Of a stretch of DNA of 64,000 nucleotides, positions 1 through 61,644 are shown one piece after another. A program made the position numbers and the translations under genes. The stretch comes from a virus. The notes under the pieces are model-generated. The model saw only the letters and a program-made list of their open reading frames with translations. It was not told the DNA's origin and ran no database searches. The stretch spans positions 1 to 64,000 of IMG/VR virus record IMGVR_UViG_3300045988_019421. The stretch is one strand, 5' to 3'. Numbering within the stretch: position 1 is the stretch's first letter; each line of letters starts with the position of its first letter.

Positions 1-42
1 CTTTATGGGGGATTTAGCGAGCTTGCGAGCGTAGGCAAGTCC
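1..42 (+). repeat. M1: composite motif copy, forward, truncated by the window edge
   Basis: ctttatggggga tttagcgagcttgcgagcgtaggcaagtcc. Homologous over ~55 nt to M10. Confidence 0.85.
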
Positions 43-89
43 AGCAATACAACTATCTTTAATACGTTGGTTTTATCCAAGTACAGTTT

Positions 90-132
90 AAAAAAAAAGA
101 ACTATCAACAGTATTGCTACTATTAATAGTTC
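90..132 (-). terminator. hairpin plus T-run (minus strand)
   Basis: Stem GAACTAT (99-105) / ATAGTTC (126-132). A9 at 90-98 gives a T-run on the minus strand. The loop is large (20 nt). Confidence 0.5.
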
Positions 133-137
133 TAAAT

Positions 138-320
138 TCATTTACTTTCTTTAATATCTTTCTTTGCTCTTGCATATCCTTTGATATAACCTTCAACAAA
201 GCGATTAGTACATAATCTTCTCATATCTAAAGAACAAGGATTATAATTACACTTTCCACAATGTCTACTTAATCCGTCTGATTGATATGCTTTTACTTTA
301 ACACTTACTTTTCTTATCAT
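138..320 (-). CDS. hypothetical small basic Cys-containing protein (60 aa)
   Basis: ATG ORF in the co-directional minus-strand gene train. CGKC-x5-C pattern. A hairpin plus T-run follows at 90-132. Confidence 0.5.
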   Translation of the reverse strand: MIRKVSVKVKAYQSDGLSRHCGKCNYNPCSLDMRRLCTNRFVEGYIKGYARAKKDIKESK

Positions 321-325
321 AATAT

Positions 326-4167: not shown

Positions 4168-4941
4168 TTACTTAATTATTAATGATGTATTACTTTCTTG
4201 TTTAGCAATAGTAAGGTCAGCATCCATACTCAAATTAGCTGCGATAATAGACTTACTAGTACAAGACTTAAATTCTACCTTATGAGGATTTTGTCCAATC
4301 CATTGAGCAAGATTAAAGTTAGTAACATTTGCAAGTTCTGATAGACGAATATGAATTGATATTTCAGTATCAATAGAGAACACATCGTCAACAGTAACAT
4401 CTACAAATGAAGATTGTTCAGATTCCTGCTCCTCTATGGGGGAACTTTCAGCTTTCATGTGAGCACTGATAATACGAGATAGATACTCAATACTAAGACT
4501 TTCCTTAATTTCAGTACTTGCTAGATATTCAGTAACTATATCCATAAAATGTCTGATAATATCAGCAATACGAACATCGTCCAACTTAGTAACAGTAGTA
4601 TTACGAGAATAGACTTTATAAGTACTACCTTCAATTACTTTATTACCGGACTTGCCCGTAGAACCAAACATTATAACTGCTTCGAGAACTGCATCTTTAA
4701 GACGTTCAAGAGTATTATTTCTTGTTTTCTTAATTTGGTTAACACGAGCAACTTCGTCACTACATTCTTTAACGTCACACTGATAACATTTAATTACTTG
4801 AAGATAATCTCCAATCTTATCTTTAAGATTATCTTCTGTAATACCTAGTTTAGCAATAATTTCTTCTGTTGCTTCACCTTCTTCGAGTTGCAAGATAATA
4901 TCCTGCAACTCTGCTTTAATACTAAATAGACTACTTCCCAT
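4168..4941 (-). CDS. hypothetical acidic protein (257 aa)
   Basis: Long ORF with a coiled-coil-like N-terminus. Contains motif copy M2 (SSPIEE). Confidence 0.7.
   Translation of the reverse strand: MGSSLFSIKAELQDIILQLEEGEATEEIIAKLGITEDNLKDKIGDYLQVIKCYQCDVKECSDEVARVNQIKKTRNNTLERLKDAVLEAVIMFGSTGKSGNKVIEGSTYKVYSRNTTVTKLDDVRIADIIRHFMDIVTEYLASTEIKESLSIEYLSRIISAHMKAESSPIEEQESEQSSFVDVTVDDVFSIDTEISIHIRLSELANVTNFNLAQWIGQNPHKVEFKSCTSKSIIAANLSMDADLTIAKQESNTSLIIK
4429..4443 (+). repeat. M2: motif copy, forward
   Basis: ctcctctatggggga. Inside the minus-strand CDS, where it is read as SSPIEE. Confidence 0.8.
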
Positions 4942-6888: not shown

Positions 6889-6915
6889 TCCCCCCATAAA
6901 GGAGTGTCGTTACTG
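6889..6915 (-). repeat. M3: extended motif copy, reverse, intergenic
   Basis: tccccccataaaggagtgtcgttactg. Confidence 0.85.
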
Positions 6916-8640: not shown

Positions 8641-9119
8641 ACTTCTTCAATTTTATATTTATTAGGTTGTTCACGCATAAGACCAATAGCAACTTCTCTA
8701 TCTATTATCATAGATTTATTAGTATCTATAACAATAATCCTGACTTTAGGATTAGGAGAGGGAGATGTAACAGATTTCCGCTCCTTTATGGGGGAAGATT
8801 TGGTAATCCGTTTACTAGTCTTATTAGTTCCCTTTTTCTTTTCGTAAACAATAGGAGGATTAACTTCTTCATATTTAAGATTAGCTTCATGAATCTTTTC
8901 AAGAGATTCTTTATCATAACCTAAATATATAAGAGCTGCCATTATCCATCTATATCTAAAATGAATAGTTTGAATATAAGGATAATTAGGTAAATCTAAT
9001 TCATGAAGATAACTAGCAATAGTATCACTAGTACCGTTAACTTTAAGATTGTGTTGAATCATCCTTATATCAGAAGCATCTAACTGATAACTAAACGGAT
9101 TTACGTTGTTTAACTTCAT
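8637..9119 (-). CDS. hypothetical protein (160 aa)
   Basis: ORF track; 4-nt overlap with the ligase start. Contains motif copy M4 (SSPIKE). Confidence 0.65.
   Translation of the reverse strand: MKLNNVNPFSYQLDASDIRMIQHNLKVNGTSDTIASYLHELDLPNYPYIQTIHFRYRWIMAALIYLGYDKESLEKIHEANLKYEEVNPPIVYEKKKGTNKTSKRITKSSPIKERKSVTSPSPNPKVRIIVIDTNKSMIIDREVAIGLMREQPNKYKIEEV
8781..8795 (+). repeat. M4: motif copy, forward
   Basis: ctcctttatggggga. In the minus-strand CDS, read as SPIKE. Confidence 0.9.
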
Positions 9120-9636: not shown

Positions 9637-10756
9637 ATAATGATTCAGTTTGTTCTATAAACGAATTAATAGTTTCTCTTGAATACATACTAACTAACTC
9701 CGAGAAATCTTTAGCACCATAACTTCTTGGAATAACAATAGGTATAATACCATATTCTTTTCGTAACCTACGAGCACCACGTACTCCTGTTAAATCACAA
9801 TCAAAAAAAGAAATAAGTATTCCATTGTCGTTTAGCTTAGATTGAAGCCAGTTATATTCGTAATCTTTGAGAACATAGCTCTCCGAAGTAACATTAATTA
9901 CTCCTATTTGAGACTCTGACAAATTCCCCCGTAAAGGATAGGAATGTAACCAGTAACTTAATACTAGATTGTCCTTATATGATTTAGTAATAATAATTAT
10001 ATCATACTTAGGTTTATCAAGATTAAGTATTCCAACAAGACCATTATGATTAGTTATAAACTTGATTTCTCCCTTACTTCTATCTCGAAGAGGAAAATAA
10101 CATTCGATATTATAAATACCATTACTATCAAGTCCGGTAACATAAGCATAACAAGGGTCTGATTCCTTATATGTATATTTAGGACTAGGTTGACAATACC
10201 TATTAATATACATTTGGTCAACAGGATAGACAAAATGAGTATTAAGCCAATGTAGACTAACTCCCCATTGTCCCCAAATATTCTTATCGTTATTAGTCCA
10301 AGTTCTAGTAGCTATTTCAATAATTGGTTTACTAGCTTTGATTTTAGATATTACTTGTTTAAGTAAGATTTCATTTTCTTCATCTACTTCTCCATCATAT
10401 ATTATCTTACGGAAAGTATAAGCTATATGCTTTAATATATAATAGAAATCTGCCTTATTAGCAACATTTATATGACGACCAGTTTTAAAACTTAGTACAT
10501 AAGCTACTAGGTCGAAACAATCACCAAAGAAAGAACCATTAAAATCACGAGCTTTTAGCTTATGTTTATTATTGAAAGCAAAACCAAATGTTGGATGATT
10601 ATCAACACGTAAAGGAGAACAAATAAGTTCATTATTTTCTACACAATTATTAACTACGGATATAGGTATACCCATATATTTAGCCATAATCATTTCTTGA
10701 CTAACTTTAGATAATATAAACTCTTTTGTTAAGTCTTGTCTTATTCCTCTACGCAT
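9623..10756 (-). CDS. DNA primase (DnaG/TOPRIM-like)
   Basis: The N-terminal CSPLRVDNHPTFGF resembles the DnaG CPFH..TPSF zinc-finger region but lacks several Cys. The C-terminal IIIITKSYKDN ... SFFDCDLTG is a TOPRIM-like E/DxD arrangement. Confidence 0.65.
   Translation of the reverse strand: MRRGIRQDLTKEFILSKVSQEMIMAKYMGIPISVVNNCVENNELICSPLRVDNHPTFGFAFNNKHKLKARDFNGSFFGDCFDLVAYVLSFKTGRHINVANKADFYYILKHIAYTFRKIIYDGEVDEENEILLKQVISKIKASKPIIEIATRTWTNNDKNIWGQWGVSLHWLNTHFVYPVDQMYINRYCQPSPKYTYKESDPCYAYVTGLDSNGIYNIECYFPLRDRSKGEIKFITNHNGLVGILNLDKPKYDIIIITKSYKDNLVLSYWLHSYPLRGNLSESQIGVINVTSESYVLKDYEYNWLQSKLNDNGILISFFDCDLTGVRGARRLRKEYGIIPIVIPRSYGAKDFSELVSMYSRETINSFIEQTESLFEYE
9925..9939 (-). repeat. M5: motif copy, reverse
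   Basis: tcccccgtaaaggat. In the primase CDS, read as YPLRGN. Confidence 0.8.
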
Positions 10757-13920: not shown

Positions 13921-15387
13921 TTATTCTCCTATTATGAAATCATTTTCACTATCTTTAACTATTTCATAGTCTTTTCCTCCTTTCGTTTCTGCTAGCTTCT
14001 TTTCTTCATTCGTACCTTTACAATATACCTTATATATTATATTAGGTACGGAACTAAAAGATAGATTAGGTATTCGATATTTTAAGTCTCGTATTGAGCT
14101 GCAAAGAGGCGAAGTGAAAATCACTATATCTACAACTCCTATAAAGCTCGTATCAATAGAATTATTTGCCGACAATACTTTCATATAGTCGTCATTAAAT
14201 AGCTCCAAATTTCGCGTTCTCTGCGCTCTTGCTTGCATGATTACTGGCTGTCCGATTTTAGCTCCCGTCTTATATACTTTCGGTTTACCTTTCTTATCAT
14301 AAGCCTGTATTCCTTCCATATCATTATGATAGTTTCCGCAATAGTCATATTGTAGAATACTCATTCCAGTTTGGAATATCTCGCCATTAGTCATAATAGA
14401 TTTACCTTCGTATTTTATATTAGCATTTAGGTACTCTGTTATCTTACCGGCAAATACTCCATTCTTTGAAATAATAAGTATTCTTTTGCCTATATTTTCC
14501 TTAACTATATCAAGTATTACATCTAGCTTAACAATATTATCAGTAACTACCTTAGTACGTTCTCTAATAATATTATAAGTTTGAGTAACTCTCTCAACTA
14601 AAGCACTAGGATTGTATAGTTCATCAATCTTACGACACATTGCATCGGTCATATCCATTTTAGCAGACCAACCATTACTTTCTGCTACTTGTAATCTACA
14701 AGTTTCAGCAGCAATATTAAGTCTAGTATTACCAACACGACATTCTTCTAACTTTTCAAAAGTACCAAATATAGTAACACTTTCATTAATATATTGGCTA
14801 CATTTATCATAATAGATTCTATCAGCATCAGTTAGAATAACACCCTTTTGGTACTCCTTTATGGGGGAATGAATAGAACGATTAATTAAGTGAGCATAAT
14901 TAATTTCATATACTTTAGGAGCATATTTATACATAAGTACAGCATTATCAGCAACACTATCAATAGCATTAGTAGCAAGTAGCTTAAACTTAAAATAGTT
15001 ACCACTATATTTCTCTGCAATCTTTCTGAACTTCTTTACATTAATAGTAATAAGTACATCTTTATGACTACTAGGACTAGGTTTATACGGAGAACGTTCA
15101 ACATAATCACGAGTAATTATAAGACATCGCTTATCAGTTATTAATTGTTTATGAATCTCTTTAAATTCAGAAGTATTATCGAGATAATAATTAATGTTAG
15201 CTCTATCTTCCATAGTCTCTGTTATAATAAGAGATGTTAAGTCAGGAGTTTTAGCTACCATTTTATCTAATACCATTGTAACGAAGTTCATTACGCTTAA
15301 TGGTTCGGATAAAATAACACTACCCACACCTTTGTTAGCAGACCATTTATTAGCAGCTTCATTATAAATATCGGTTACATCATTCAT
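13921..15387 (-). CDS. helicase-like protein with degenerate SF2 motifs
   Basis: 488 aa. It has no clean Walker A, but it has a C-terminal MQARAQRTRN (motif VI-like) and a two-lobe-sized layout. Contains motif copy M6. Confidence 0.35.
   Translation of the reverse strand: MNDVTDIYNEAANKWSANKGVGSVILSEPLSVMNFVTMVLDKMVAKTPDLTSLIITETMEDRANINYYLDNTSEFKEIHKQLITDKRCLIITRDYVERSPYKPSPSSHKDVLITINVKKFRKIAEKYSGNYFKFKLLATNAIDSVADNAVLMYKYAPKVYEINYAHLINRSIHSPIKEYQKGVILTDADRIYYDKCSQYINESVTIFGTFEKLEECRVGNTRLNIAAETCRLQVAESNGWSAKMDMTDAMCRKIDELYNPSALVERVTQTYNIIRERTKVVTDNIVKLDVILDIVKENIGKRILIISKNGVFAGKITEYLNANIKYEGKSIMTNGEIFQTGMSILQYDYCGNYHNDMEGIQAYDKKGKPKVYKTGAKIGQPVIMQARAQRTRNLELFNDDYMKVLSANNSIDTSFIGVVDIVIFTSPLCSSIRDLKYRIPNLSFSSVPNIIYKVYCKGTNEEKKLAETKGGKDYEIVKDSENDFIIGE
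14854..14868 (+). repeat. M6: motif copy, forward
   Basis: ctcctttatggggga. In the minus-strand CDS, read as SPIKE. Confidence 0.9.
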
Positions 15388-15868: not shown

Positions 15869-18056
15869 ATAAAGTATTTCTCATTCCATAGTATTTCTTA
15901 ACTAAACGTTTACCTTTACCTTTATTATTACGACTTTGCTCTATTGGTTCTATAATAGTCATAGCTTCATTATAATAATATAAGTAATTAACATTTAATT
16001 CAGATATATCAGTATCATCAACAGTATTACATATAGAAACACGTTGACCTGCACATAGAGAACTTTTATTAACTTGTTCTTCGTTACGCTCATTCCAGCC
16101 CATACTCTCGACTTTCATCAATGTTCCCCCCGTAGAGGAGATGTAAAACCTTGTATTCCTTTGCACTATATCTGTTACTATCTTTCCGTCTACAACATGA
16201 GTAAACTCTAGTCTATACTTATGATTAACATTTTGAGTACGACAGAAATCAAGAATAGATTTAGCATTTCTAAGAGTTTCCATTACAGGAGTTCCATTAA
16301 TAAAGTATTCAGTAACACATTTAGCTACAATAGGAGAATTATATCCTTTAGATAAATCCTCTAAGAACATCTTAGGATTCATTCTACCTTTGAACTTACT
16401 ACTTCCACCACGTTTAACAGTAAGATAACTATTAACGCCTTCGGTTACATACTTTGTATAATATGTAAATTCTAGCTCTAACCCTAGATGTTTCTCCCAC
16501 CAATGACAAATATCATCAGCAGTTTGTTCTAATTCTCTAGGAACAATAGTTACAATACCATCTGTATTAGCACTTATAACATGAATACCTGCAAGTTCAA
16601 GTTTCTCTATTAACATCAATAAAAATAACTGACCGTTAATAGTAACTTGATACATTGCTTTCTTGTCACATAAGAAAGACTTTTCACTTCCCATTTTACC
16701 AAATATACCAGCATTTGCTACAATCTTTAGACAAGCAGCAGCAGTAGCATGTTTATCTCTCTCCATAACATCAAGAGATTTATCTTTGGCTAAATGTTTA
16801 TGTTCTAGTCGTTCATCAACAATAGTATCAGCTATACGAAACCATGCTTTAGGAATAAGGTGTTTCTGACATACTTTAAGACTACGTATCATATTAGGAT
16901 AATAACTTGCAACATCTCTGTCAACAATAATACTATCAGAATTTTCAACATATACAGCTGGAATCTCATTTGAATGTAGACCCCCAGTTGCGATGGTATA
17001 GGACGTGCCCATAAAGGTAAATTCTCGGTCAAATTCGCCCTTTTCTCCACGTAAGGTAAGGGAACGTATGCCTGACAAAATATCGTTCAATTCAGGGGTC
17101 GAAAATGCGATTTTATCTGACAAGATTTCGGAAACCAAGATTTTCCTACGTATTGTCTTAGTATCAATGAAGGCTTTAGGATGTAGACCAGTAAATTTAC
17201 TATATAGTTTAACAATAACTTTATCAGCTACTGTACTTCTACTAGCAGAATATACATCTACCTTATATTCTTCACTAATACGATACCTTAAAAGAACTTC
17301 TTCCTGATTCATTCTGATTAGCTCGGCAACAATATATACATCATTGTCATTATAATCAGCCATTTCATTAAGATATTCTCTAGGAATAAATCGCTCAAAT
17401 ACATTACGATAATGAATATTAAGTTCTCTATCAGTCATTCCCTTTGCTTCGGGTAATCTCTCGTGATAATAATGTCTATCTAAATCACCAATAGGTGGCA
17501 TAGTATACTCTTTTAGATTATACCATTTAATATTAATAGAAGTCTGTTTAAGACTTTTATGATAATGGTCTAGCCTAAAGATTTGGAATAAATCCAAGTC
17601 TCGAAATGCTACGTTATTGCGTAATATAAGAGAAGTGAAGTTATCAGTCCAAAGAGTATCATTATTAGAACTACGAATAACTCTCTGTGATGTTTCATAT
17701 AAGAATGTGATTAACTTACTAGGCTTATCAAATTGATTATAATACATGAGCAATGCACTCAACATTAAGCGGTCGTAACGCCTGTTGTTATATCCAAAGT
17801 AATCAGCTTTGTTTTGAAGAAAGGAAAGTAAACTAAATAAGTCTTTATCGTCATCTTCGTATAATACAAATCTAACTTTCTTTATCTTATCTAATCTAGC
17901 TTTTAATTCACTAACTTTTAAACAATCTATTATAGGAATGGCTTTACCTTCATTATCTACACAATCTGAAAAAGTACGCAAATATTCTCTTAATGAAACA
18001 AAAACAACAGAGAAATAGTTTCTAGTTACCTCAACATCATAAACAAGAGACATCAT
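15861..18056 (-). CDS. family B DNA polymerase
   Basis: Exo I VYDVEVT; Exo II YNDNDVYIVAEL; motif A DVASYYPNMI; motif B KIVANAGIFGKMG; motif C ISANTDGIV. The ORF is uninterrupted. Confidence 0.9.
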   Translation of the reverse strand: MMSLVYDVEVTRNYFSVVFVSLREYLRTFSDCVDNEGKAIPIIDCLKVSELKARLDKIKKVRFVLYEDDDKDLFSLLSFLQNKADYFGYNNRRYDRLMLSALLMYYNQFDKPSKLITFLYETSQRVIRSSNNDTLWTDNFTSLILRNNVAFRDLDLFQIFRLDHYHKSLKQTSINIKWYNLKEYTMPPIGDLDRHYYHERLPEAKGMTDRELNIHYRNVFERFIPREYLNEMADYNDNDVYIVAELIRMNQEEVLLRYRISEEYKVDVYSASRSTVADKVIVKLYSKFTGLHPKAFIDTKTIRRKILVSEILSDKIAFSTPELNDILSGIRSLTLRGEKGEFDREFTFMGTSYTIATGGLHSNEIPAVYVENSDSIIVDRDVASYYPNMIRSLKVCQKHLIPKAWFRIADTIVDERLEHKHLAKDKSLDVMERDKHATAAACLKIVANAGIFGKMGSEKSFLCDKKAMYQVTINGQLFLLMLIEKLELAGIHVISANTDGIVTIVPRELEQTADDICHWWEKHLGLELEFTYYTKYVTEGVNSYLTVKRGGSSKFKGRMNPKMFLEDLSKGYNSPIVAKCVTEYFINGTPVMETLRNAKSILDFCRTQNVNHKYRLEFTHVVDGKIVTDIVQRNTRFYISSTGGTLMKVESMGWNERNEEQVNKSSLCAGQRVSICNTVDDTDISELNVNYLYYYNEAMTIIEPIEQSRNNKGKGKRLVKKYYGMRNTLFD
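16125..16140 (-). repeat. M7: motif copy, reverse (6 C)
   Basis: tccccccgtagaggag. In the polymerase CDS, read as SSTGG. Confidence 0.75.
17007..17018 (-). repeat. M8: degenerate motif copy, reverse
   Basis: gcccataaaggt. In the polymerase CDS, read as TFMGT. Weak match. Confidence 0.3.
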
Positions 18057-20470: not shown

Positions 20471-20722
20471 TTAAGGTTTAACTATTTGATTAGGAGAATA
20501 CTGTCTATAATATGGACCTCTACGAGGAAATATCTTATACTTATCAGTATTCATAATTCTAGATAATGGAGTAATTTCACAACATCTATTACTATGAACA
20601 TCTACGATAATACAATGATAAGAATCAGTATCCATATCATGAGAAATAACAGCTTTAAGTCCTTCAAAATATACATCAAAAGTACTATCAGGATTAACAC
20701 ATTGTTTTAAATCTACAACCAT
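20471..20722 (-). CDS. hypothetical protein (83 aa)
   Basis: I prefer the internal ATG at 20722 (MVVDLKQC...), which abuts the upstream stop at 20724. Confidence 0.55.
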   Translation of the reverse strand: MVVDLKQCVNPDSTFDVYFEGLKAVISHDMDTDSYHCIIVDVHSNRCCEITPLSRIMNTDKYKIFPRRGPYYRQYSPNQIVKP

Positions 20723-21178: not shown

Positions 21179-21517
21179 TTATTTAATAGGAGCATCTGAC
21201 CGCTCCGCTTCGCTCCGCTTTTCTCCCCCGTAAAGGGGTGACATTTCTTGTACTTTCTTCTTTATTTCATTTAGAATCTTACAATTGAAAGTAATAGTTT
21301 CATTACTATATAAAGTTTTACTATAAAGCTCTTTAATATCATTATTATTAGATTCATAAATGAATAAATAAAAAGAAATACAATAAATCGGTTTAATATC
21401 ACTACCATGTGAACTAGTATAAATATCTATTGTTCTCCGATTATCATCACTATCAATAACAAATACTTGTAATTTTTGAAGTTCTCTAAGTAGTTTAATA
21501 AATTCTTTTTTACTCAT
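21179..21517 (-). CDS. hypothetical protein (112 aa) whose C-terminus is encoded by composite motif copy M9
   Basis: ORF track. The last 20 codons (SPLYGGEKRSEAERSDAPIK) lie in the GC-rich composite element at 21189-21244. Confidence 0.6.
   Translation of the reverse strand: MSKKEFIKLLRELQKLQVFVIDSDDNRRTIDIYTSSHGSDIKPIYCISFYLFIYESNNNDIKELYSKTLYSNETITFNCKILNEIKKKVQEMSPLYGGEKRSEAERSDAPIK
21189..21244 (-). repeat. M9: composite motif copy, reverse
   Basis: ggagcatctgaccgctccgcttcgctccgcttttc tcccccgtaaagggg tgacat. The reverse complement aligns with M10 and M12. Confidence 0.85.
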
Positions 21518-24176: not shown

Positions 24177-24226
24177 AAATACAAGTATTAATTATTAAGA
24201 ATTTAATTTTAAAAGTAGAATCTATA

Positions 24227-24628: not shown

Positions 24629-24684
24629 CAGTAATGTCACTCCTTTATGGGGGAGAAAAGCGAGCTTTGCGAGCGGGACAAGTC
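24629..24684 (+). repeat. M10: composite motif copy, forward, at the edge of the divergent region
   Basis: cagtaatgtca ctcctttatggggga gaaaagcgagctttgcgagcgggacaagtc. Confidence 0.9.
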
Positions 24685-31967: not shown

Positions 31968-32313
31968 TTTACAGCAATCCTACTCCTTTATGGGGGATGG
32001 CGGAGCGAAGCGACGCCTAGATAAAGAAGTATTAAGAATAGCCAATGCAAAATTAATACTTTCAGAAGAGTATAAAAGTCAATATGAATCCTACAAGAAG
32101 TTATACGAACTAAAAATTAGAGATAGCTACTTGCAGGATTCTATTATATCTAAGCAACGTGAAGAAATAAAGAGGATAACAATACTAGGAAATCAAGCTA
32201 TTGTTAATCTTAATAAGGAATATAATAAGTCTAAAAGGTATAAGAAGCAACGTAATGGATTCATAGCTAGTACAAGTGTGCTAGCTATTCTTGTTGCTAT
32301 ACTATTAAAATAA
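31843..32313 (+). CDS. spanin-like protein (N-terminal signal-like segment, coiled coil, C-terminal TM); alternative start at ATG 31989 inside motif copy M12
   Basis: It overlaps 31632..31967 by 125 nt in another frame. It has a C-terminal FIASTSVLAILVAILLK. The N-terminal LLFSNASYILC is only weakly lipobox-like. Confidence 0.4.
   Translation: MRKNLIKQLVILIVLLFSNASYILCQNQSELRIQRLETKVDSLQQSYSFMGDGGAKRRLDKEVLRIANAKLILSEEYKSQYESYKKLYELKIRDSYLQDSIISKQREEIKRITILGNQAIVNLNKEYNKSKRYKKQRNGFIASTSVLAILVAILLK
31983..32017 (+). repeat. M12: composite motif copy, forward
   Basis: ctcctttatggggga tggcggagcgaagcgacgcc. It sits 16 nt after the stop of 31632..31967. Confidence 0.85.
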
Positions 32314-37691: not shown

Positions 37692-39002
37692 ATGGGAACT
37701 TTTAGTAGTAATAATGATTTAGATTTAAGTACTGGTAGTATTGATAATGGCGATACTACTAATACTGGAGGTCAAGGTACTGGCTCTGGTGCTAACGGCA
37801 ATCCTGCCGGACAGGGACAACAAGGTGCTGGACAAGAAGGACAACAAGGACAAGGTGGAAGTGCTGATACTAGTACTGTTGATAATGGAGGTGAAAACCA
37901 ACAGGGACAACAGGGACAAGGAGAAGGACAGCAAGGAAGCTCCTCTACGGGGGAAGAAGTGGTATTATCAGAAGGTGATACTGTAAACGTTGATGGTGTA
38001 GATTATACTATTGATGCTAACGGTAATGCTCTTGCTGCTGATGGAACTGTGTTCCGTACTGCTGCTGAACTTGCTGAACTTATATCTCAAAATGGTTCTG
38101 AACCAAGTATTCTTGAACAATTACAAACTCGTTTCGGTTCTGATTTTAAAGATGAAAATGGTAATCCTATTGTATTTGATAATAATACAGAAGGTGTTGC
38201 TGCTTATGTTGATACAGTAATTCAGAATAGAATTGCAGAAGCTCAAACTGCTGCTCTTAATAATCTGTTTGAAACTTATCCACAAGTAGAACAAGTTATC
38301 AATCATCTTAAACTTAACGGTACTCTTGAAGACTTCGTAGAAATTCCTGATAGAAGTCAAATTACTGTTAGTAAAGATAACGAAGAACAACAAGCTACTT
38401 TCATTCGTGAAGAATGGAAACTTAGCGGTAAAAAAGGAGATGTAAATAAATTCATTGACTATTGTAAGAACGCTGGTATTCTTTATGATACTGCTGTTGA
38501 ATCTAAAGAAGCTGTTGATAGCATTTATGAATCTCGACTTGCTGAACAGAAAGCACAAGTAGAAGCTAAAGAAGCTGCTGCTGCTGCCGAAGAGAAAGCA
38601 TATTGGGATAATGTAGAAAAGACTATTAGTAAAGGCGAACTATTAGGTTATAGTATTCCTGAACAGATTCAATGTAACAAAGACGGAAAGAAAGTAATGC
38701 TTAGTCGCAAAGACTTCTTGAAGTATGTGTCTACTCCTGTTGACAATGAAGGTAATACAGCTTATATGTTAGACGAAGCTAAAGTTGATTCTAATGCTCG
38801 TATGCAGGATGATTTACTTAAAGCATTTCTTAGGTTTACTGGTGGCGATTATGCTAGTCTTGTCGGTATGGCTGTTAACAAGCAGAAAGTTCTATCTATT
38901 AGAACTACCGCAGCACAAACTACTGGTAAAAGGACTGTTATTATCAATAGTAAAGGTAATAATTCTAAGACAGTTGATAATGACCAACTAGTCTTGAACT
39001 AA
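37692..39002 (+). CDS. structural or scaffold-like protein with a G/Q-rich low-complexity N-terminus (436 aa)
   Basis: The track ORF starts at TTG 37632. I prefer ATG 37692 (MGTFSSNNDL...). Residues ~25-90 are GQGTGSGANGNPAGQGQQGAGQEGQQGQGG.... It lies immediately upstream of the MCP. Confidence 0.6.
   Translation: MGTFSSNNDLDLSTGSIDNGDTTNTGGQGTGSGANGNPAGQGQQGAGQEGQQGQGGSADTSTVDNGGENQQGQQGQGEGQQGSSSTGEEVVLSEGDTVNVDGVDYTIDANGNALAADGTVFRTAAELAELISQNGSEPSILEQLQTRFGSDFKDENGNPIVFDNNTEGVAAYVDTVIQNRIAEAQTAALNNLFETYPQVEQVINHLKLNGTLEDFVEIPDRSQITVSKDNEEQQATFIREEWKLSGKKGDVNKFIDYCKNAGILYDTAVESKEAVDSIYESRLAEQKAQVEAKEAAAAAEEKAYWDNVEKTISKGELLGYSIPEQIQCNKDGKKVMLSRKDFLKYVSTPVDNEGNTAYMLDEAKVDSNARMQDDLLKAFLRFTGGDYASLVGMAVNKQKVLSIRTTAAQTTGKRTVIINSKGNNSKTVDNDQLVLN
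37940..37954 (+). repeat. M14: motif copy, forward
   Basis: ctcctctacggggga. Read as SSTGE. Confidence 0.8.
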
Positions 39003-41714: not shown

Positions 41715-42368
41715 ATGAAAGTAGCAGAGATACATAACGAGTTCATGCTTCTAGCTCAACAAATGGGCATGAAAACTGTGCGAGCAATACTTCCCGAACA
41801 GGTAGACGAAATAATCAATTTAGAGACTATCGAATATGTGAAAGATGTTTTCTCTCGTAAAGGTAATCGTGAACTCGATGGTATCTCTGATAACGTTATA
41901 AGATTAACAGAACTTAGTCCTCTTCATACTAGTATTAAGATTGAAGCTAGACAAGAAGATATAATGTTTGGTACTGGTTATAAGATAGAGTTAAACGACT
42001 GTCCAAAACCCATGTTCTATACATCTGTCTACTCCTTTAAGGGGAATAAGTCTTATCGTTGTAGATTAATAGACTTAGACTTAGTGAGTGAAACGATGAA
42101 CGATTATCATTCAAAGTCTATTGTTATAAGTCCTATATGTTATAAGACTGAATCTAATATTGAAGTAATAGCGACATTTGAGATAGAGAAGTTCTTAGTT
42201 AATTATATTAAGTATCCTACTCTAATTAGTATTGCAACTGATACTACGAATGAATTATCAGATATTGCTATGCACGAAGTTATTAAGAGGGCTGTTAATA
42301 CCTTTAATGCTATCTCTAATAATAATAGTTATGAGAAAGTTTCAAACGAATTATCTAAATTAGAATAA
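41715..42368 (+). CDS. hypothetical structural-module protein (217 aa)
   Basis: ORF track; tight coupling to the next gene. Confidence 0.65.
   Translation: MKVAEIHNEFMLLAQQMGMKTVRAILPEQVDEIINLETIEYVKDVFSRKGNRELDGISDNVIRLTELSPLHTSIKIEARQEDIMFGTGYKIELNDCPKPMFYTSVYSFKGNKSYRCRLIDLDLVSETMNDYHSKSIVISPICYKTESNIEVIATFEIEKFLVNYIKYPTLISIATDTTNELSDIAMHEVIKRAVNTFNAISNNNSYEKVSNELSKLE
42032..42046 (+). repeat. M15: degenerate motif copy, forward
   Basis: ctcctttaaggggaa. Read as SFKGN. Confidence 0.55.
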
Positions 42369-45127: not shown

Positions 45128-48100
45128 ATGAGAAAAGGAATAAGTATAGGTCAGCCTCTTGTTAACAATAGTGTAGATGATAATTATAATCCTCTACCTG
45201 ATGTTGATGCTAAGTATGGACCTTATAATAGTATTGCAGAAGCTCTGAAAGAATTGTCTCCTGAATTACGTTCGGTAGGTCTTACGGTAGGTATTAAACA
45301 AAATAATATTATTAATGAGTATTGGTTTAATGGAGGTATTGAAAACAAGAATCTTGTAGTTAAGCAACAAGGTGGTGGAGATGAACCAGTTCAAACTGTT
45401 TATATACAAGACAATCCTCCTGCTAATACAAATTCTCTTTGGGTAGATACTTCTGGATTAGGGGCAGCTCTTGAAGAAGATGAAAAGCTAGCTCCTATAA
45501 TTCAATCTATTCAAGTGATACAAAAGTATCTTGATACTATTGTCCATCAAAGAGATTTAATTATAAATCCAGGTCATGTTAGTAATACTTTTACTAAGTC
45601 TGTATTAAAAGAATATACTCCTATTGACCCTAATACAGGACAATTAGCAATTAGAGTTGCTGCTGTTGGTGAAAGTCTTGAACCTGAAACAGAAGAATAC
45701 GAACCTAATACTAAAGCGGTTCGTGGGCATTATGGTACTCTTAAAGAAATCCAAGATAACTTTAATAATTTTGTAGATTACGAACTTCTAATTGCTACTG
45801 ATGTAAAACGTTTATATACCAAGATTAATGGAGAACCTGTTAATCTTACTGGTACTAGTTCAGGCGGTGGCGGTAGTATTGATTATGAAGCATTGGATAA
45901 ATTAGATACTATTGGCTTCGTTGCTCCTAATGGACAAGTATATCGTGTTAAAGTTAATAACAACGGACAACTAGTAGTATATAAGAAAGAATTAGATATA
46001 CCACAAGCAGAACCTACTGGTGGACAAGAAGAACCTGGAACTGGTTGGGTATATGTAACTACTCTATATCTACAAAAGTTATATATTAACTCTTTGTATT
46101 GTGGCGGTATTACTAGTGACGAATATAGTTATAATCCATGCTCTCATAACTTCGTTGAACTTAGTAATCTTACAGGTAAAGATGTATCTCTTAATGGACT
46201 ATCATTACAGTATGGTACAGAAGGTGGAAATTGGGAAGTACTCCCTTTATGGGGGAATATCAAAGCAGGTTCGACATTCTTAATTAGAGGTGCTCAATGT
46301 TCAGTAATAAATACTAATACTACTCGTATTAAAGTTGAGACTTATGATATGGAATGGTATGCTAGTGATGGTAATCTTATTAAATTTGATAATAAGAAAG
46401 CTAAGTTTTTCTTGACTTGGGGAACGTCACCTAGTTCTGTTGCGAATCCTTATAATAACACGACTTCCCCTATAAAGGTATCTAAAGGTTATATTGATTT
46501 AGTTGGACTTCAAATCTTAAATGCTGGTGATGCTGATAAAGTTGATGCTGCTGAAAATACTGCTTATGGTTATCTTACTAGTAAGTACTTATTTACTAAG
46601 TACTATACTATGGACAATGTTAAGCAAGCTACTAAAGCTCTTAGTGCTAGAAATAACGCTAATGATATGTACTTTGTTAATCTCGAAGCAAACATAATAC
46701 CTAGAGTAGATTCTTATACTCCACGTGCTAGCTTTGAGAACAAGAATATATTCTTTAATAAGACTTTACTAGACCATACTAAACCTAATAAGGTTACTAT
46801 GACTTTAGGTAGAAAAGCTTGTTATACTCTTAATGAATCTAATGAACCTAATGATGATGCTAGTAGATGTTTCAATTGGGTGTCAGTAGGTTACTATGAT
46901 GAATATTTATGGTATCGTGCATATAGAAGTGACAATAGTTATACTAATTGGACTAAAGTAGAATCATTTAAAAATGAGACTGGTGTTCGTAAATATTATA
47001 ATCGTATTCGTGCAATAACTACTGATGGTACTCCTTTTACTACTCATAAAGTAATACTTACTCATTTAGGAGAACAATATGATACTCATACAAAGGATAA
47101 GAATATTTATTATGAATATTATGTAGGTAGAGACGAAACTTATAAGAGCGATATTCGTAGATTTGTAGTTATGAGTGAAAATGCAGGGAGCGAAGTTCTT
47201 AACTTTGTTCAGACTTCCGACCAACAAGGCTTTAATTGGGATGAATATAATGTATGGAAAATAACTGCCGGTCAAATAAAGAAAGACTTTAATAGATATG
47301 AAACCAGTAACATATCTGTGTGCTACTTTATGATTAATACTGGCGATATGACACAGAATGGTAATCGTATTAATGAATGGTTAGATTATGAAGCAGGAAG
47401 AGAACCACTATACGATATTGCTGAAATGGTAACTGTTGGTAACAATGACTTAACTCCGGCTAATGTATATGTTCTTGGTGATGGTGGTGATAACTCTAAG
47501 ATTAATGCTACTAATATTAGATTCTTCTATTGTTACGAAATGGATGAAGATAATCCGCCAGTATTTACTGTTGAAGATAAAGAAATATTTGTCGAATCAT
47601 TATATTCTTTTGATGTTGGACATAATCATTTCTTATGTGTTAATAGTGAGATAAGTGCTAATACTGAAAGAGACGTTTACGGACTTACTACTACTGGTGT
47701 GATGTATGATTTGATAAGACAATGGTGTGAAAGAGATGATGCTAATGCAATTAATGCTAAAGCTAAGATAGCTTATTGCCATGAAATGCCTTTTACTATT
47801 ATTACTCAAAATCTTATTAATTCATTTTATTGGAATAATGAAGAAAACACTAGTGTTGAGAGAAGTGGTAGTAGATTGAATTTCAATACAACTAAAGCTA
47901 ACGCTTATTGGTTCTCAAAATTCTTACAGACCCACAATTACCGTTTATGTCTTGGCGGACATAAACATACTTACAGTTGCAGTTATCCGATTTTAGAGAA
48001 CGAAAACAGCTCTATGAAGCCTATCATACAGGTCACTGCGGACGTTTTAAAGAAGGATTTTAATTCTGATGAATTATATACGGAAACTGCCGAAGGTGCG

Positions 48101-48589: not shown

Positions 48590-48591
48590 TT

Positions 48592-51500
48592 ATGGCAGAT
48601 AATATTAAAAGGTATAATCCTAAAACTGGTAATTGGGATATAAGTTCTTCTGGAAAAGCTACTGGTATTGTTGTCGAAGACCCTCGTCTTATCGACCCTG
48701 AAGTAGCAGAAGAAGGTGTTACTGGTGAAAGTCTTAATGATGTTCTTGTTCGCCATGAAGAAGAATTAAAGAAGCATGGTGGATATATTGCTTGGCTTGC
48801 CGAACACGGTGGTGGCGGAAGTGGCGGCGGTGGCGGAGCTACTGGTGATAAGATTACTCTTACTAATGGTAATATAGTAAAAGAAGGTAATATTAATTAT
48901 CTTTATTCTACTGTAACTACTAATATTAAACTGGAATATCTTATTACTTCTTCTAAGAATAATAAGCGATATTTTATTACTGTTACTCTTGACGGTAATA
49001 ATATTATCGAAGGTAAAGAAGCATGGACTAATACTCCTGGAACTCTTAATATTCCACAACTAGATAAGTTCTCTGCTAATAGTAATCACTCTGTTGTAAT
49101 TACAGCTAGTGATACAGATGGATTCTCTGCTGAATCTTATCTACTTAATATAGTAGAAGCTAGTATTAAACTTACTAGTACTGTATCAGGTAATACTGCT
49201 ACTGTTGGTCTCGACTACTTCTTTACTTATAGTATCATTAGTAAAATTATTGGTTCAGATGTTAACCTTGTTGTTACTAATGTAACTAATGGTGCTACTA
49301 AAACTATTGAATTAGGTAAGACAACTTCTACTGCTCCTAAACAAGTTAATGTTAACTTGTGGGAACTAGGTAATATTATAGCAGGTAGTTCTTATACTAT
49401 ACAAGCACAAGCATTTACTTCAATGAATGAAGCTACTGTTCAATCTGATAAAGTAACGAATCGTGTAGTTGTTGAAGATGGTATTAATCTTGTTGTTCTA
49501 GTAGAAGGTATTACTAGTAAAGCAGAAGTAGATGCCGGAGTTGAGAGAACTAAGTTCTCTCAAAGCAGTAATGTATCTTTTGCATTTACTCCATATCTTG
49601 CAGGAGTTAGTCTTATCTATTATGCAGTTAGAATCGAACATAATGGTATTACTAAAGATATAGGTTACTTCGATGAAGGAAACTATAACGATAATCAATA
49701 TGTTCAGCGTGGTAAACAACAGGTGTTTAGTTATGCTATTCCAACAGAAGGAGATGTTATTGGTAATTGGAATATTACACTTCGTTGTTGGTCTGAAAAA
49801 GGAAACCCTGTAACTGATACTGTTCTTGCTTGCGAAGTAGTATCTAGTTCACAAGCTCTTATTGCAGACCAAAATCCTAATAGCAGTAGATACGCTAGTT
49901 GGCACGTTCGTCAAGAAAGTTTTCCTCAAGTATCTACTACTAAAGTTTGGACTAGTAATGAACCAACATTTACTGCACCCGGTTCTATTACTCCTAGTGG
50001 TGCTATAACTAATCTTAATGTATATAATACAAACGGAGTACTATCAGGATTCTTAACAGAGAACGGACAATCTATGTTACGTATATCAGGAGAAGCCTAT
50101 GGTGTTATTGATGTACAGCCATTTAAAGATGATATAACAACTCTTAATAACTGGTCTAGACAAGGATTTGGATTATCATGTACGTTTAAATCAGATATTC
50201 ATCCGTTCTCAAAAAGAACAATATTCTTTATAGGGGATTACAATACTGACGAACAATTCTCTGAAGGTATTAAAGTAGGTCTTGAAGATATTATTTGGTC
50301 TTATACAGATGGTAATATTAAAGAAACTATTAGTTGTAAGATACAACAGAATGTTATTAATACTGTTGATTTTATAGTTAATAAGAATCAAGGAAAGATG
50401 ATTGTAGGTATCTTTATCAATGGTATACTTAATGCTGCTCGTGAAATAAAGACTGACTTTACTTGGAAGACTAATTCTAAGATATATCTTGGTTGCGATA
50501 TTAGTAATTCAGGACAGATTCAAAACTTTGCCGATGTTAATTTCTATGATATTAAATTGTTCCGTGTTCCTGCTAATGATAAAGAAATTGTTATTAATGC
50601 AATGAACTCTAGAGCTAAAGCAACTCTTTTATCTGATGGTAGTGTAGACTTTACTGAATACAATAGAATGAAGTTAAAGAACTTCTTCTCTACTTCTGAT
50701 TCAGAACCCCATTCTATTCTATGGGACGATATTAACCAAACGTATGCTAGTGTCAATTTCAACAGTCTTATCTCTGATACTACTAGAGTATTACCAGTTG
50801 ATATAATGTTGATTAATTGCGCTAATACTGGTTTTACTCGTGCTATATTTGAAGAAATTGGAGGTCAGAATAATAATTGGTATAGTGGTTGTACTATGAG
50901 TTACTTTAGTCCAACTTCGGGAAAGTCTAGCTCTGAATATACTACTGATGTTTCTGTTTCTAAGCAAGGTACTTCTACTTTGAACAATCTTATTAAGAAC
51001 TTAGAGATAAGATTCGATAAGATGCTTAAAGATGATGATGGTGGTAATCTTGATTACGAGTTATTCCAACCTAGAGAAACATGGTTTCCTGAAAGACAAT
51101 TTACGCTTAAAGCTGACGTTGTTGACAGTGCTCACGCTAATAATGCTTCTATTGGTAAATGGATTAATGATAACTCGGATTTCTTATTTGAGAAAACTCC
51201 GCCTATGGAGCAACTTGAATCTCATCGTCCAGTAGATACTCGCGATAGAACTGTAAAAGATAAAGTTACTATTAAACAAACTCTTGAAGGTTTTCCTATA
51301 ATACTTCTTATTCAGTTTGATGGAGAAGAAACTCAAACTATGCTTGGTATATACAGTTTTAACTTAGGTCGTGGAGCTTATTATAATATGGGATTCCGCT
51401 TCTTAAAAGATTTTACTACTAAGATAAAGAATACAGCAGGTGAGTATGTTGATAATAAACTTCCTGCTTTTGTTACTTCTTATCATACTTATGCTCAAGA

Positions 51501-56520: not shown

Positions 56521-56546
56521 TCCCCCATAAAGGAGTGAGTATTAAC
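56521..56546 (-). repeat. M20: extended motif copy, reverse, intergenic
   Basis: tcccccataaaggagtgagtattaac. Confidence 0.9.
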
Positions 56547-56557
56547 AGTAATCACAT

Positions 56558-56571
56558 CTCTTTAAGGGGGA
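56558..56571 (+). repeat. M21: motif copy, forward; inverted partner of M20
   Basis: ctctttaaggggga, directly followed by ATG 56572. Confidence 0.6.
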
Positions 56572-59800: not shown

Positions 59801-61222
59801 AATAAGGCACTAGGAAATCTAATATACGACCAAAGAGATAATGGTAGTACTACTAGTTTCGCCATTATGCCAGTAAATATTAATGATTCTACAAATAACA
59901 AAATTGCTTATCAAGCACGAAATGCAAATGGGATTACTTATATTGATGGTATTAGAAATGAATATATAGAAAGTTATAGCCTTGAAAATATAATTCATAA
60001 TATTACTATTACAAATCCTGATGTTAGTAATAAAACAGTTGCTCTTGGAGCTAGTAATAAATCTACTGCTGATTGTTTTGCTAAAATGTCTCTCTACGAC
60101 TTTATGCTGTTTGACGAAATCTCAACGGACGATAAGATTAAAGAGCTGAACGAGTATGTAGGTATTGAAGCTAAGGTAGAATTACCACCTTATTACTGGG
60201 ATACTTATGGTAAAACCAATCTCGATGCAGATAAAGCTACTATTCAACAAAGAGGTGTAGCCGTAGGTGATTATGATTTAACTAATTATAATCATGCTTA
60301 CGAAGGTATGAGTGGATATAATGGTTATCCTGTTGTATTTGGTATTGGTAAAACTTATGGAGGAATGCCAAGTACTGATGATTTTGCATATACTGTTTCT
60401 CCAACTACTGTAAATGTTACCAAATTTAATATTACTCATGGTTTTATTTACAGTTATTTAAAGCATAATGGAGAATTAGAAACACAGAATTCAGATTATC
60501 CTTCGTATAAGATAAAGGTTACTGGACTTGAAAAAGGTTTTGGATTACATTATTCTTATCTTAAGAATCCTTCTGATGCTAATCTTAGTGCATTTGGTAT
60601 AGGTACTGATGGTACTTATACTATTCCTAAATCTTTTGCAAGTGATGGAAGTTTGATAAATAACAATGTTTGGATAGGTTTTATATTTACTGGTACTGCA
60701 CCTGAATCATGTAATGTTACTATCGAAGTTCTTCCTGAATATGAAAATGGTTTAGCTTATGATGGAATAGAAGATTTTAGTGATAATAAGAACATTCCTA
60801 TATTTACAGATTTTACTGCTATTATAAAAAGAATTGATTTAGATGCTAAGAATAATAATTCTTCTGTAATGTTTAAAGGAAATAAAATCTATGAAAGTGG
60901 TATTGGAAATGGTTTTATTTTAGATTATCATTATGATAGTAAAAACTATGTTTATAGTTATGGTAAAGTAAATCGGATAGAACGAGATAATTCTAAGATT
61001 ATTTATTTAACTCCTGAAAGTTATAATGGTAATCCTATTATAAAAGGTGAAAATGGAGATAATCTAGGATTAATACTTGGTAAATATTGGAAAGGAATAA
61101 TCTATAAAACAATTCTATATTCTAAGACTATCTCGTTACTAGAAATTAATTTCCTAAAGAACCTGATGGAAAAGGATGAAATAATTGATTTAAATAACCC
61201 AATATTTATAAAAAATGAATAA
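56882..61222 (+). CDS. large tail fibre-like protein (~1446 aa) with repeated LamG/concanavalin-like modules
   Basis: The track start is TTG 56864; I prefer ATG 56882 (MGTNTGLG...). Recurrent modules: FVTDGINDMII, LLLDGITDFGKV, YQFDGVDDFVTIP, LAYDGIEDFSDN. The N-terminal segment (PPELKARLIGVWDNYGKKNTDAD) is duplicated internally (PPYYWDTYGKTNLDAD). Confidence 0.65.
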   Translation: MGTNTGLGIGIGIPFKNNALGGDKPYFPPELKARLIGVWDNYGKKNTDADRNIIKNKIPNAGGDLEILNAAYKLNSGFGEYKEDFTSWRIYPNIEVTDNVITTNGNFNSTWFIYKHSNENEINEINIKVSGIPEGGKILYFYIPDETATMPVSYNISKDGVYHLPKSKLSSNRVSVGFTVSSSYDWNNIRIEQLSDFGGAFVTDGINDMIISQKTLQEMGVTKELTIVSMIHQISWRGSASIPLTNYIRNGDTFIRNSISNIGKTGIYGYTCFNIKNVNSSASKVINNILGDKNDYIVEYRGDILSERFSVQGYIDGNGNILETSSVAHYWTFAVLGKATEDEINLIIGNYNLDRSLKPDILCNIGKQGITNDNHADFNNKLIDYSGNNRDIQMNNLAWKGGSGIAAKKFETIKDYSIIPDEGLQELTIYNEFSFKIKSIRYADRYWAVQSLNKTNISYPVTIITDKDIIWRNALNYTDADGVKGSVRKETNVPANTPTQVFIYGFNDFDISDDYTKVNCVAYAARKDITEFTVTFIPSYKGGLLLDGITDFGKVTGMPVYKDYTFIIDRKFLNETFANQVCLASKSKVAVEGENGGAFTVDNISVNSIINPYSFYKTTSLPGLNTFDRQIVFQSKYKYLDKDIAAGTATDSDTLWLGTFRDNDSRFANVAIYSLMSFPYSMSEFLIERQLKKHKLGTLYPDMVEFRPVIKANANYKITYYQIDSTNTWKSIKVGDYIVIGAKLAFQITFDNDASELKEVVSPQLSGIIVEKRPSNPGYNIYSYITSKSPQKINITIDEYIRYEDIVQPYPVIFQITDRNTNQRYSWGDKIKVGSSIRLSQSEKLNLLSGLYSIKSYEYEGETYSYNQLTNLNIILTKQSISLSCNKTWLLDDNEPKCILSPRLLRIPNSSYKILGHIPDISGHGNHGKINNSAYAEGSGVNEDGSYQFDGVDDFVTIPTVAGKQVLMKLNWQNKALGNLIYDQRDNGSTTSFAIMPVNINDSTNNKIAYQARNANGITYIDGIRNEYIESYSLENIIHNITITNPDVSNKTVALGASNKSTADCFAKMSLYDFMLFDEISTDDKIKELNEYVGIEAKVELPPYYWDTYGKTNLDADKATIQQRGVAVGDYDLTNYNHAYEGMSGYNGYPVVFGIGKTYGGMPSTDDFAYTVSPTTVNVTKFNITHGFIYSYLKHNGELETQNSDYPSYKIKVTGLEKGFGLHYSYLKNPSDANLSAFGIGTDGTYTIPKSFASDGSLINNNVWIGFIFTGTAPESCNVTIEVLPEYENGLAYDGIEDFSDNKNIPIFTDFTAIIKRIDLDAKNNNSSVMFKGNKIYESGIGNGFILDYHYDSKNYVYSYGKVNRIERDNSKIIYLTPESYNGNPIIKGENGDNLGLILGKYWKGIIYKTILYSKTISLLEINFLKNLMEKDEIIDLNNPIFIKNE

Positions 61223-61321
61223 ATGAAAATAATGCCTTATAAACTACTTAAAGTAGTTTATATAATACTTGCTATAATTGCAGTAGTTATGTATACATTA
61301 AGTTTAATATTTAATATTTAA
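61223..61321 (+). CDS. possible 32-aa membrane peptide
   Basis: Hand-translated as MKIMPYKLLKVVYIILAIIAVVMYTLSLIFNI. It starts 1 nt after the upstream stop and contains a 10-bp palindrome. Confidence 0.3.
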   Translation: MKIMPYKLLKVVYIILAIIAVVMYTLSLIFNI

Positions 61322-61326
61322 AGATT

Positions 61327-61635
61327 ATGATTGATTACATTGTATTTCCTGTTGCTGATATAGATGAAGAGAAGTCAGCAAAGATTGACGAACTTAATTT
61401 AGTTCCTCGTAGTAATGTTAGTAAAGATAAAGTATTAATGAAGTGTCAACATTATGAAAAGGTGTTTCCTGAAAAAGTAACTAGAATAGTTACTACTGAT
61501 GAAGAAGGATTGGAAGTTATCAATATCGAATATCCTTATGAAACTTATTCTAATGAAGCACTTTCTACTTTATTGTCAAGTCCTGAATGGAATCCTAAAG
61601 AAGATGAGGTAATAGAAGATTCCCCCATAGAGTAG
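61327..61635 (+). CDS. hypothetical acidic protein (102 aa) ending inside motif copy M22
   Basis: ORF track. The last codons DSPIE-stop are the motif. A strong terminator follows. Confidence 0.6.
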   Translation: MIDYIVFPVADIDEEKSAKIDELNLVPRSNVSKDKVLMKCQHYEKVFPEKVTRIVTTDEEGLEVINIEYPYETYSNEALSTLLSSPEWNPKEDEVIEDSPIE

Positions 61636-61644
61636 TGACATTAC
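61621..61644 (-). repeat. M22: extended motif copy, reverse
   Basis: tcccccatagagtagtgacattac. It shares the GTGACATTAC tail with the reverse complement of M10. Confidence 0.7.

Follow-up and report, generated by a model that had tools for sequence, protein, structure and literature searches.

Here, we describe a GC-rich motif that is dispersed through the genome of a crAss-like phage. The stretch analyzed (hereafter, the window) comprises the first 64,000 nucleotides (nt) of IMG/VR record IMGVR_UViG_3300045988_019421. It belongs to the genus Jahgtovirus (Intestiviridae, Churivirinae); across the 20 kb tested, its identity is 96.6% to Bacteroides phage crAss002 and 90.9% to cr107_1. The leftward genes extend to about position 27,000, and the rightward ones begin at about 28,000. 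The GC content is 32%, in line with the about 30 percent given in the preliminary description of this DNA, which had pointed to the motif. IMG/VR holds many Jahgtovirus contigs and, in addition, a lineage that is only ~70% identical at the nucleotide level. Orthology of copies across genera was assigned by projecting coordinates through translated alignments of Jahgtovirus, Rudgehvirus, and the prototypical crAssphage (p-crAssphage). Rfam and tRNA scans of the window returned nothing.

The motif, written YYCCTYTAYGGGGGA as a 15-base G-rich word, occurs 15 times in the window at up to two mismatches, against 0.09 expected. A search with CTCCTTTAYGGGGGA gave 6 exact copies and the same 15 at up to two mismatches, while dinucleotide shuffles yielded 0.00 and 0.09, respectively, and a relaxed pattern identified 17 full copies and, at position 1, a truncated one. 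These counts bear out the dispersed occurrence in both orientations that had been proposed, as does the distribution of G5/C5 runs, 18 of 22 of which lie within a motif context. A logo built from 28 crAss002 copies reads Y-Y-C-C-T-Y-T-A-Y-G-G-G-G-G-A, mostly followed by a further A. Positions 1, 2, 6, and 9 vary almost wholly between C and T, and the flanks are low in information. Among the start coordinates in the preliminary description, most were correct and four were off by one, the true starts being 6890, 16126, 24640, and 46242. The degenerate copies at 34384, 42032, 42670, 46466, 50223/4, 56557/8, and 61621 are recognizable, but the one at 17007 is weak.

At the left edge lies the truncated copy (CTTTATGGGGGA, 1..12, plus strand), earlier listed as a strong copy; a copy is indeed present, but the window begins 3 nt into it and its first three bases are missing. 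It is orthologous to the copy at 64774 of crAss002, where it forms the plus member of a back-to-back divergent pair (64739-/64774+). A GC-rich element (AGCGAGCTTGCGAGCG, 16..31, plus), also found in crAss002 and cr107_1, follows it 3 nt downstream. In the leftward gene block, the Gam-like gene (open reading frame [ORF] 4168-4941, minus) contains an antisense copy (CTCCTCTATGGGGGA, 4429..4443, plus) that is kept in crAss002 (68811) and cr107_1 (74167). An intergenic copy (6890..6904, minus) points into the downstream ORF 6431-6775, and an antisense one (8781..8795, plus) lies in ORF 8637-9119 (minus). The primase gene (ORF 9623-10756) carries a sense copy (9925..9939, minus) with orthologues in the primases of Rudgehvirus and p-crAssphage. 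The helicase gene (ORF 13921-15387, minus) carries an antisense copy (14854..14868, plus) whose orthologues are found in the ~70% identity lineage, Rudgehvirus, and p-crAssphage. A further sense copy (16126..16140, minus) resides in the DNA polymerase gene (ORF 15861-18056). Around 20500..20514 (plus; approximate to a few nt), a decayed copy (GACCTCTACGAGGAA) corresponds to the crAss002 copy at 85501 (CTCCTTTACGGGGGA). The 3' end of ORF 21179-21517 bears a sense copy (21224..21238, minus) with a (GCGNA)n element (AGCGGAGCGAAGCGGAGCGG, 21200..21219, minus) 4 nt downstream. The last copy of this block (24640..24654, plus) points rightward within a 1.8-kb region without long ORFs (24177-25963) and has a GC-rich element downstream (AGCGAGCTTTGCGAGCGGG, 24659..24677, plus). 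This region lacks any ORF of 80 or more amino acids, and the motif and its GC element enter it against the surrounding leftward genes. A non-coding transcript from it is possible; phi14:2, a phage of the crAss-like group, has been reported to make abundant long non-coding RNAs of intergenic origin.

In the rightward block, a sense copy (29976..29990, plus) is located 17 nt upstream of the start (30007) of a PD-(D/E)XK exonuclease ORF. It is kept in the ~70% identity lineage, and in p-crAssphage a copy with the same orientation is found 47 nt away from the projection. Another sense copy (31983..31997, plus) precedes the terminase operon and is followed by the hairpin GGCG-GA-GCGAAGC-GA-CGCC (31999..32017, plus), which contains both GCGGAGC and GCGAAGC. 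A degenerate antisense copy (CTTCCCTATGGGGGA, 34384..34398, minus) lies within the terminase ORF. Sense copies are present in ORF 37632-39002 (37940..37954, plus), ORF 41715-42368 (CTCCTTTAAGGGGAA, 42032..42046, plus), ORF 45128-48589 (46242..46256, plus), and ORF 48586-56466 (degenerate, ATTCTTTATAGGGGA, 50223..50237, plus). For the copy at 37940, the Rudgehvirus orthologue lies 3 nt from the projection and a same-orientation p-crAssphage copy 34 nt off. An intergenic back-to-back divergent pair consists of a left member (56521..56535, minus) and a right member (TCTCTTTAAGGGGGA, 56557..56571, plus), the latter directly followed by the ATG of ORF 56572-56892. The rightmost copy (CTACTCTATGGGGGA, 61621..61635, minus) is antisense at the 3' end of ORF 61327-61635 (plus).

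The intragenic forward copies of crAss002 use all three reading frames (3, 4, and 9 copies), as had been noticed for the window. Thus, the conservation acts at the nucleotide level. Reverse copies had been described as always read S/T-P-I/V-x; this reading stands but "always" is too strong, as S-P-I/V/L-K/E-E/K is found in 9 of the 10 reverse copies of crAss002. The choice of frame probably reflects which peptides are tolerated.

Related crAss-like genomes carry the motif at corresponding places. At up to two mismatches, crAss002 has 27 copies and cr107_1 has 26 (about 30 each with the relaxed pattern), and their positions are syntenic. When 25 aligned site pairs of these two phages were compared, the ten constrained positions of the motif (4, 5, 7, 8, and 10-15) showed 2 substitutions in 250, as opposed to 6.0% in the flanks, which corresponds to an approximately 7-fold deficit; the five Y positions of the same pairs showed 15 in 125. 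In the ~70% identity lineage, full motifs are orthologous to the crAss002 copies at 2201, 39839, 40800, 50152, 53876, 58946, and 80349. Conservation reaches across subfamilies, which upholds the earlier proposal of a functional cis-element conserved as nucleotides. In each of the three Intestiviridae genera, the primase and SNF2-type helicase genes have a copy that deviates by 0-10 nt from the projection, and for the structural gene following the portal the offset is 3 nt in Rudgehvirus and ~35 nt in p-crAssphage. The motif is thus non-random, under strong nucleotide-level purifying selection, positionally conserved, and, as shown below, phage-specific.

These comparisons bear on the suggestion that the copies are the footprint of a tiny mobile or selfish repeat without function for the phage. 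Dispersal in both orientations and a length of 15 nt, a multiple of three, would suit such an origin. However, the copies occupy orthologous codons across genera without indels, so that nothing resembling insertion of REP, MITE, or RPE elements is seen, and their constrained positions evolve some seven times more slowly than the flanks. The window copy orthologous to crAss002 85501 has decayed through five substitutions, showing that sites can be lost by point substitution. Together with the concerted change between lineages and the even spacing described below, this largely refutes a mobile origin, which we consider very improbable. The proposal of a recombination or base-modification target likewise gained no specific support.

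Other genera and families carry their own versions of the motif. The Rudgehvirus version is CTCCTYTACAGGGGA; in Rudgehvirus jaberico (Crudevirinae), it takes the form YTCCTYTACAGGGGW together with a conserved downstream box, with 28-29 copies by pattern. The prototypical crAssphage version is CCATCCTCYACGGGGRGT, and 32 copies of TYCCATCCTCYACGGGGRGT, i.e., TYCCA-TCCTCYACGGGGRGT, were found in p-crAssphage (Carjivirus communis). In a different family, crAss001 (Steigviridae; MH675552) lacks the G-run word and has instead 27 exact copies of CTTCTGGAG, with well under one expected. They occur on both strands, the plus-strand sites never being consecutive and the minus-strand spacing being regular, and this word is an analogous dispersed signal. 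The Crevaviridae phage cr127_1 (NC_055886) contains 10 copies of a ~35-nt GC-rich element (TTTCGGAACACCTCTCGCCCTTGTGGCCATTAAAC) that includes CGCCCTTGTGGCC. These are mostly intergenic and upstream of genes, 6 of the 10 being in sense orientation within 350 nt before gene starts, among them those of the gene for the giant RNA polymerase and of the gene that opens the minus block. Two convergent pairs are spaced ~170-190 nt apart, and one copy points into an unannotated 1.4-kb stretch (1782-3227). In cr10_1 (Suoliviridae), only a weak word, TTACTNNGGA, was found, in ~50 copies. In the strong versions, a C-rich block is followed by a short segment rich in T and then by a block rich in G. The motif changes in concert within each lineage.

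The motif differs even between phages of the same host genus. A scan of 185,579 bacterial and archaeal species genomes gave scattered single matches only, among the matches listed, so we see no sign of a host signal. We also considered a Chi-like host hotspot or an uptake sequence and rejected both: the signal measures 15-27 nt, compared to 5-8 nt for Chi, and the host matches, among those listed, are scattered.

The coefficient of variation (CV) of the gaps between sites on one strand was 0.31-0.55 in four genomes (crAss002 plus strand, 0.35; Rudgehvirus, 0.38 and 0.46; p-crAssphage, 0.50 and 0.31; crAss001 minus strand, 0.46), whereas random placement gives ~0.9. The usual period on each strand is 5-7 kb. 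The exception is the minus strand of crAss002, which is free of sites over 35 kb spanning the structural module; this genome has 18 plus and 12 minus sites, while both strands are covered in Rudgehvirus and p-crAssphage. A polar origin-to-terminus model of orientation fits 21 of the 30 crAss002 sites and was discarded, finding no support in genomes with full coverage of both strands. In four of four genomes, the orientation of successive sites alternates above chance (P from 0.0014 to 0.04), and no two same-strand sites lie within 300 nt of each other in any of six genomes. Close opposite-strand pairs are enriched in Rudgehvirus (6 pairs, P=0.001), p-crAssphage (5, P=0.014), and cr127_1 (2, P=0.01); they are mostly divergent in the first two and convergent in cr127_1. 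The even spacing, the alternation, the GCGNAGC elements treated below, and the separate version of the prototypical crAssphage all go beyond the preliminary description.

Regular coverage of both strands is best accounted for by strand-specific DNA processing, either a one-strand nick made by a phage enzyme, as in T5 or phiKMV, or a site at which primers are laid on single-stranded DNA. A nick is envisaged at CTC^CTTTAYGGGGGA, and no part of either strand would then be more than a few kilobases away from a site. The same explanation suits the alternation, the spacing out of same-strand sites, and the placement in the replication and polymerase modules, which for the most part does not follow gene orientation. 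In the Gam-like gene, the site location is kept between Jahgtovirus and Rudgehvirus while its orientation is flipped, which points the same way. The phage encodes, by annotation, both a primase and a ligase, and the crAss virion polymerase acts on single-stranded DNA. Two contig ends also fall in the motif: the window starts 3 nt into a copy, and the 69.8-kb contig IMGVR_UViG_3300045988_014088 ends 2 nt into another. The latter copy also carries a downstream GC element. Such ends are anecdotal and may either be due to the GC-rich or palindromic context during assembly or hint at fragile or nicked sites.

The other contigs outweigh these two ends. Thirty-six of them span the window-start site and none visibly begins there, although contig ranges were left unchecked, and 0 of 34 p-crAssphage contig ends coincide with a motif; crAss002 has been reported to be circularly permuted, without fixed ends. 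The interruptions of T5 and phiKMV-like phages have a consensus of up to ~20 nt and are scattered, also within genes, but they fall on one strand and number ~3-14 per genome. The present motif resembles them in being a specific sequence distributed over genes and intergenic regions alike; it differs in occupying both strands with ~30 copies per genome. Known primases, moreover, read only 3-5 nt. Finally, nicking or priming would leave the intergenic orientation bias, the junction pairs, and the sense bias in the structural module, all described below, unexplained. We therefore regard it as possible but doubtful.

Several copies are accompanied by a second element. Heptamers of the form GCGNAGC, in many cases arranged as (GCGNA)3-4, are almost confined to the 45 nt downstream of a motif on the same strand (9 of 10 in p-crAssphage, 7 of 8 in cr107_1, 6 of 10 in crAss002, and 5 of 8 in the window). 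In the window, they follow the copies at 21224 and 31983, while the related AGCGAGC-T2-3-GCGAGCG follows those at 1 and 24640. Between 4 and 7 copies per genome carry such GC elements; Rudgehvirus is without them. The virion RNA polymerase of phage N4, which is inactive on duplex DNA, uses a promoter hairpin (GAAGCGGAGCTTC) with a small GC stem and a GNA-type loop (GAAGC-GGA-GCTTC). The similarity of its core to the GCGGAGC and GCGAAGC units suggests a role in opening the duplex or in giving the RNA a stable 5' structure. The early promoters of N4 number three and are defined mainly by the hairpin. In contrast, the conserved part here is a primary-sequence word in ~30 copies, the GC elements lie downstream of it, and the N4 arrangement of a 5-7 bp stem, a 3-nt loop, and few early copies was not observed.

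The spacing, the alternation, and the close opposite-strand pairs could also be explained by a phage architectural protein, e.g., of the IHF/HU type, that folds or anchors the genome for packaging, ejection, or replication. IHF-type proteins read asymmetric sites, and IHF-like genes are annotated in crAss002, Rudgehvirus, p-crAssphage, and phi14:2. However, the G/C-rich core is unlike the A/T-rich IHF consensus, and a duplex-binding organizer would need neither the same-strand association with GCGNAGC nor the intergenic orientation bias. The viable-looking strain of the window tolerates the loss of the site orthologous to 85501. Taking this together, we judge an architectural site improbable. 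When 20 ORFs of the window were compared with Pfam in search of a candidate binding protein, the outcome was uninformative.

We also weighed an RNA hairpin, CUCCU-YUAY-GGGGG, that would mark a point of processing, stability, or termination. It appeared in the minimum-energy structure of all seven complete copies folded, the 5' arm varies only between C and T so that G-C or G-U pairs persist, and the closing position changes from U.G to U-A in Rudgehvirus. Nevertheless, the folding energies were no better than those of shuffles (z from -2.1 to +0.9), and the pairing is not kept in p-crAssphage, with its GGGGAG variants, or in crAss001. An A at position 1 breaks the outer pair in 6 of 28 Rudgehvirus copies. 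Nearly half of the copies are antisense to genes, which the hairpin would leave unexplained. We find this possibility more remote still than an architectural site.

The relation of the copies to genes was counted in crAss002, Rudgehvirus, and p-crAssphage, reading the annotation tables by eye. Between a quarter and a third of the copies are intergenic, though intergenic regions make up a small share of the genomes. Of 34 copies in or at intergenic regions of these three Intestiviridae genomes, 24 point into the adjacent downstream gene; those that do not are mostly partners in a close pair. Exactly where the two divergent gene blocks meet, p-crAssphage (95745-/95864+) and Rudgehvirus (85899-/86013+) each have a divergent pair, with either member directed into its own block. 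Within the structural module, sense copies outnumber antisense ones by about 20 to 7, whereas the two orientations are similarly frequent in the replication and polymerase modules. The placement is thus oriented with respect to intergenic regions and gene-block junctions.

On this basis, we tentatively favor, while stopping short of calling it probable, a strand-specific recognition and initiation signal, i.e., a promoter, for a phage-directed RNA polymerase. The reasons are the size and asymmetry of the motif, its layout, its concerted lineage versions, the way in which intergenic copies and junction pairs are oriented, the excess of sense copies in the structural module, and the mostly upstream and sense placement in cr127_1. 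In this layout, a C-rich specificity block (YYCC) would be followed by a T/A-rich melting segment of 4-5 nt (TYTAY), and the G-run with the next A would form the point where RNA synthesis begins. The arrow of each site would run 5' to 3' along the G-rich strand. We infer that a polymerase binds here and starts within the G-run. The cognate enzyme would most plausibly be the crAss-type two-barrel phage RNA polymerase or, alternatively, the host enzyme redirected by a phage factor; the annotations of crAss002, Rudgehvirus, and p-crAssphage include RNA polymerase subunits. Intergenic copies would start the mRNAs of the genes they face, and the GCGNAGC mini-hairpins could give the transcript a stable 5' structure or aid duplex opening. 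The evenly spaced intragenic copies on both strands would act as internal and antisense starts, whose transcripts may serve regulation or priming.

Promoters of this general kind are well known. Those of the T7, T3, and SP6 group are asymmetric, 15-25 nt long, and present in many copies, some of them inside upstream genes. The T7 promoter consists of a specificity block, an A/T-rich melting segment, and a G-rich start (...CACTATAGGGAGA). In this group, the whole promoter set changes in concert between related phages, and transcripts often begin with stable hairpins. The motif described here has the same asymmetric, multi-copy character far above chance, the same order of blocks, intragenic copies, and a sequence that co-varies with the lineage in phages that encode a polymerase of their own. 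It differs in that T7-type promoters face one way and are unevenly spaced, and in that the polymerase of crAss-like phages is of the two-barrel rather than the T7-like type. A closer enzymatic parallel is provided by the polymerases of phage P23-45, which are single-subunit two-barrel enzymes structurally related to the crAss gp66 type. Each of them has its own strongly conserved motif, found by a search with a minimum width of 15 nt, upstream of 7-14 mapped starts. Those motifs precede mapped pre-early and early starts, whereas the present one is genome-wide and on both strands.

Several observations weigh against a promoter. The polymerase genes sit outside the window, and Jahgtovirus has no copy at its own divergent junction, which harbors other repeats. 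About 40-45% of copies are intragenic and antisense, some of them, such as the helicase site, conserved across subfamilies, and the sense intragenic copies are not clustered toward the 3' ends of genes. The even spacing on each strand ignores the boundaries and orientation of genes, and we know of no ordinary mRNA promoters that are evenly spaced per strand. A literature search for transcription starts of crAss001 found none, and the literature searched yielded no 5'-end data for the phages that carry the motif; the one crAss-like phage with mapped 5' ends is phi14:2. Its early transcripts share no common upstream motif, and no comparable motif was found when we examined its genome. The middle promoters of phi14:2 and the related Steigviridae motifs are tripartite, -35/-10-like signals for the host sigma-70-type polymerase and have not been reported for Intestiviridae. 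They too are crAss-like cis-elements obtained by motif search and are mostly intergenic and sense; they are unrelated in sequence to the motif described here. An exact-protein look-up for transcript-like contigs returned no record. Among the roles first suggested, a signal for a phage-encoded RNA polymerase fits the anatomy best.

Even spacing per strand and alternation of orientation are not properties of known phage promoter sets, and the biology may therefore exceed ordinary gene expression. No promoter is known for the crAss virion polymerase, an enzyme that is active on single-stranded but not on duplex DNA. Rather speculatively, and with less confidence than we place in nicking or priming alone, the motif might be a genome-wide coverage signal that operates on single-stranded DNA, offering the crAss virion-type RNA polymerase or a primase strand-specific initiation sites at regular distances along both strands. 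These sites would couple transcription to lagging-strand priming, replication initiation, or DNA entry. Intestiviridae, the prototypical crAssphage among them, would share such a signal in the form of lineage dialects, as probably would other Crassvirales families.

Full-text searches with the motif strings of Jahgtovirus, Rudgehvirus, and p-crAssphage yielded no relevant paper. Neither a 2023 review of Crassvirales nor the comparative-genomics paper of Yutin (2021) mentions promoters or such motifs or repeats. Within the literature searched, the element thus appears undescribed. It represents a concrete candidate for the missing signal of the virion polymerase, or for another DNA transaction. 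In practical terms, it is a sharp lineage marker and a constraint to be respected when these phages are recoded or engineered.

Several further features of the window were recorded. A homing-endonuclease ORF with NUMOD4 and HNH_3 domains (18059-18640, minus) lies between the DNA polymerase and helicase genes. crAss002 has no such ORF at this place and possesses the HNH genes gp58 and gp61, which are absent from the window genome. Because the two genomes carry different HNH genes, the endonuclease content is strain-specific. Within the 1452-amino acid ORF 56864-61222, the segment 57146-61166 aligns with crAss002 only in patches; this is probably a variable tail or receptor-binding gene. A direct repeat of ~29 nt (GCAATATGTTTAAAGTCATTTGGTTTGAT) is present in three copies (26745-26773, 26781-26809, and 27390-27418, the third mismatched) in a largely non-coding region adjoining the divergent junction of the gene blocks. 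These repeats may represent iterons or promoters of the host type. At ~27530-27570, a short tandem repeat of TTCTAATTCTAT-type units is embedded in a long stretch, rich in pyrimidines and poor in ORFs, immediately to the left of the first rightward gene.

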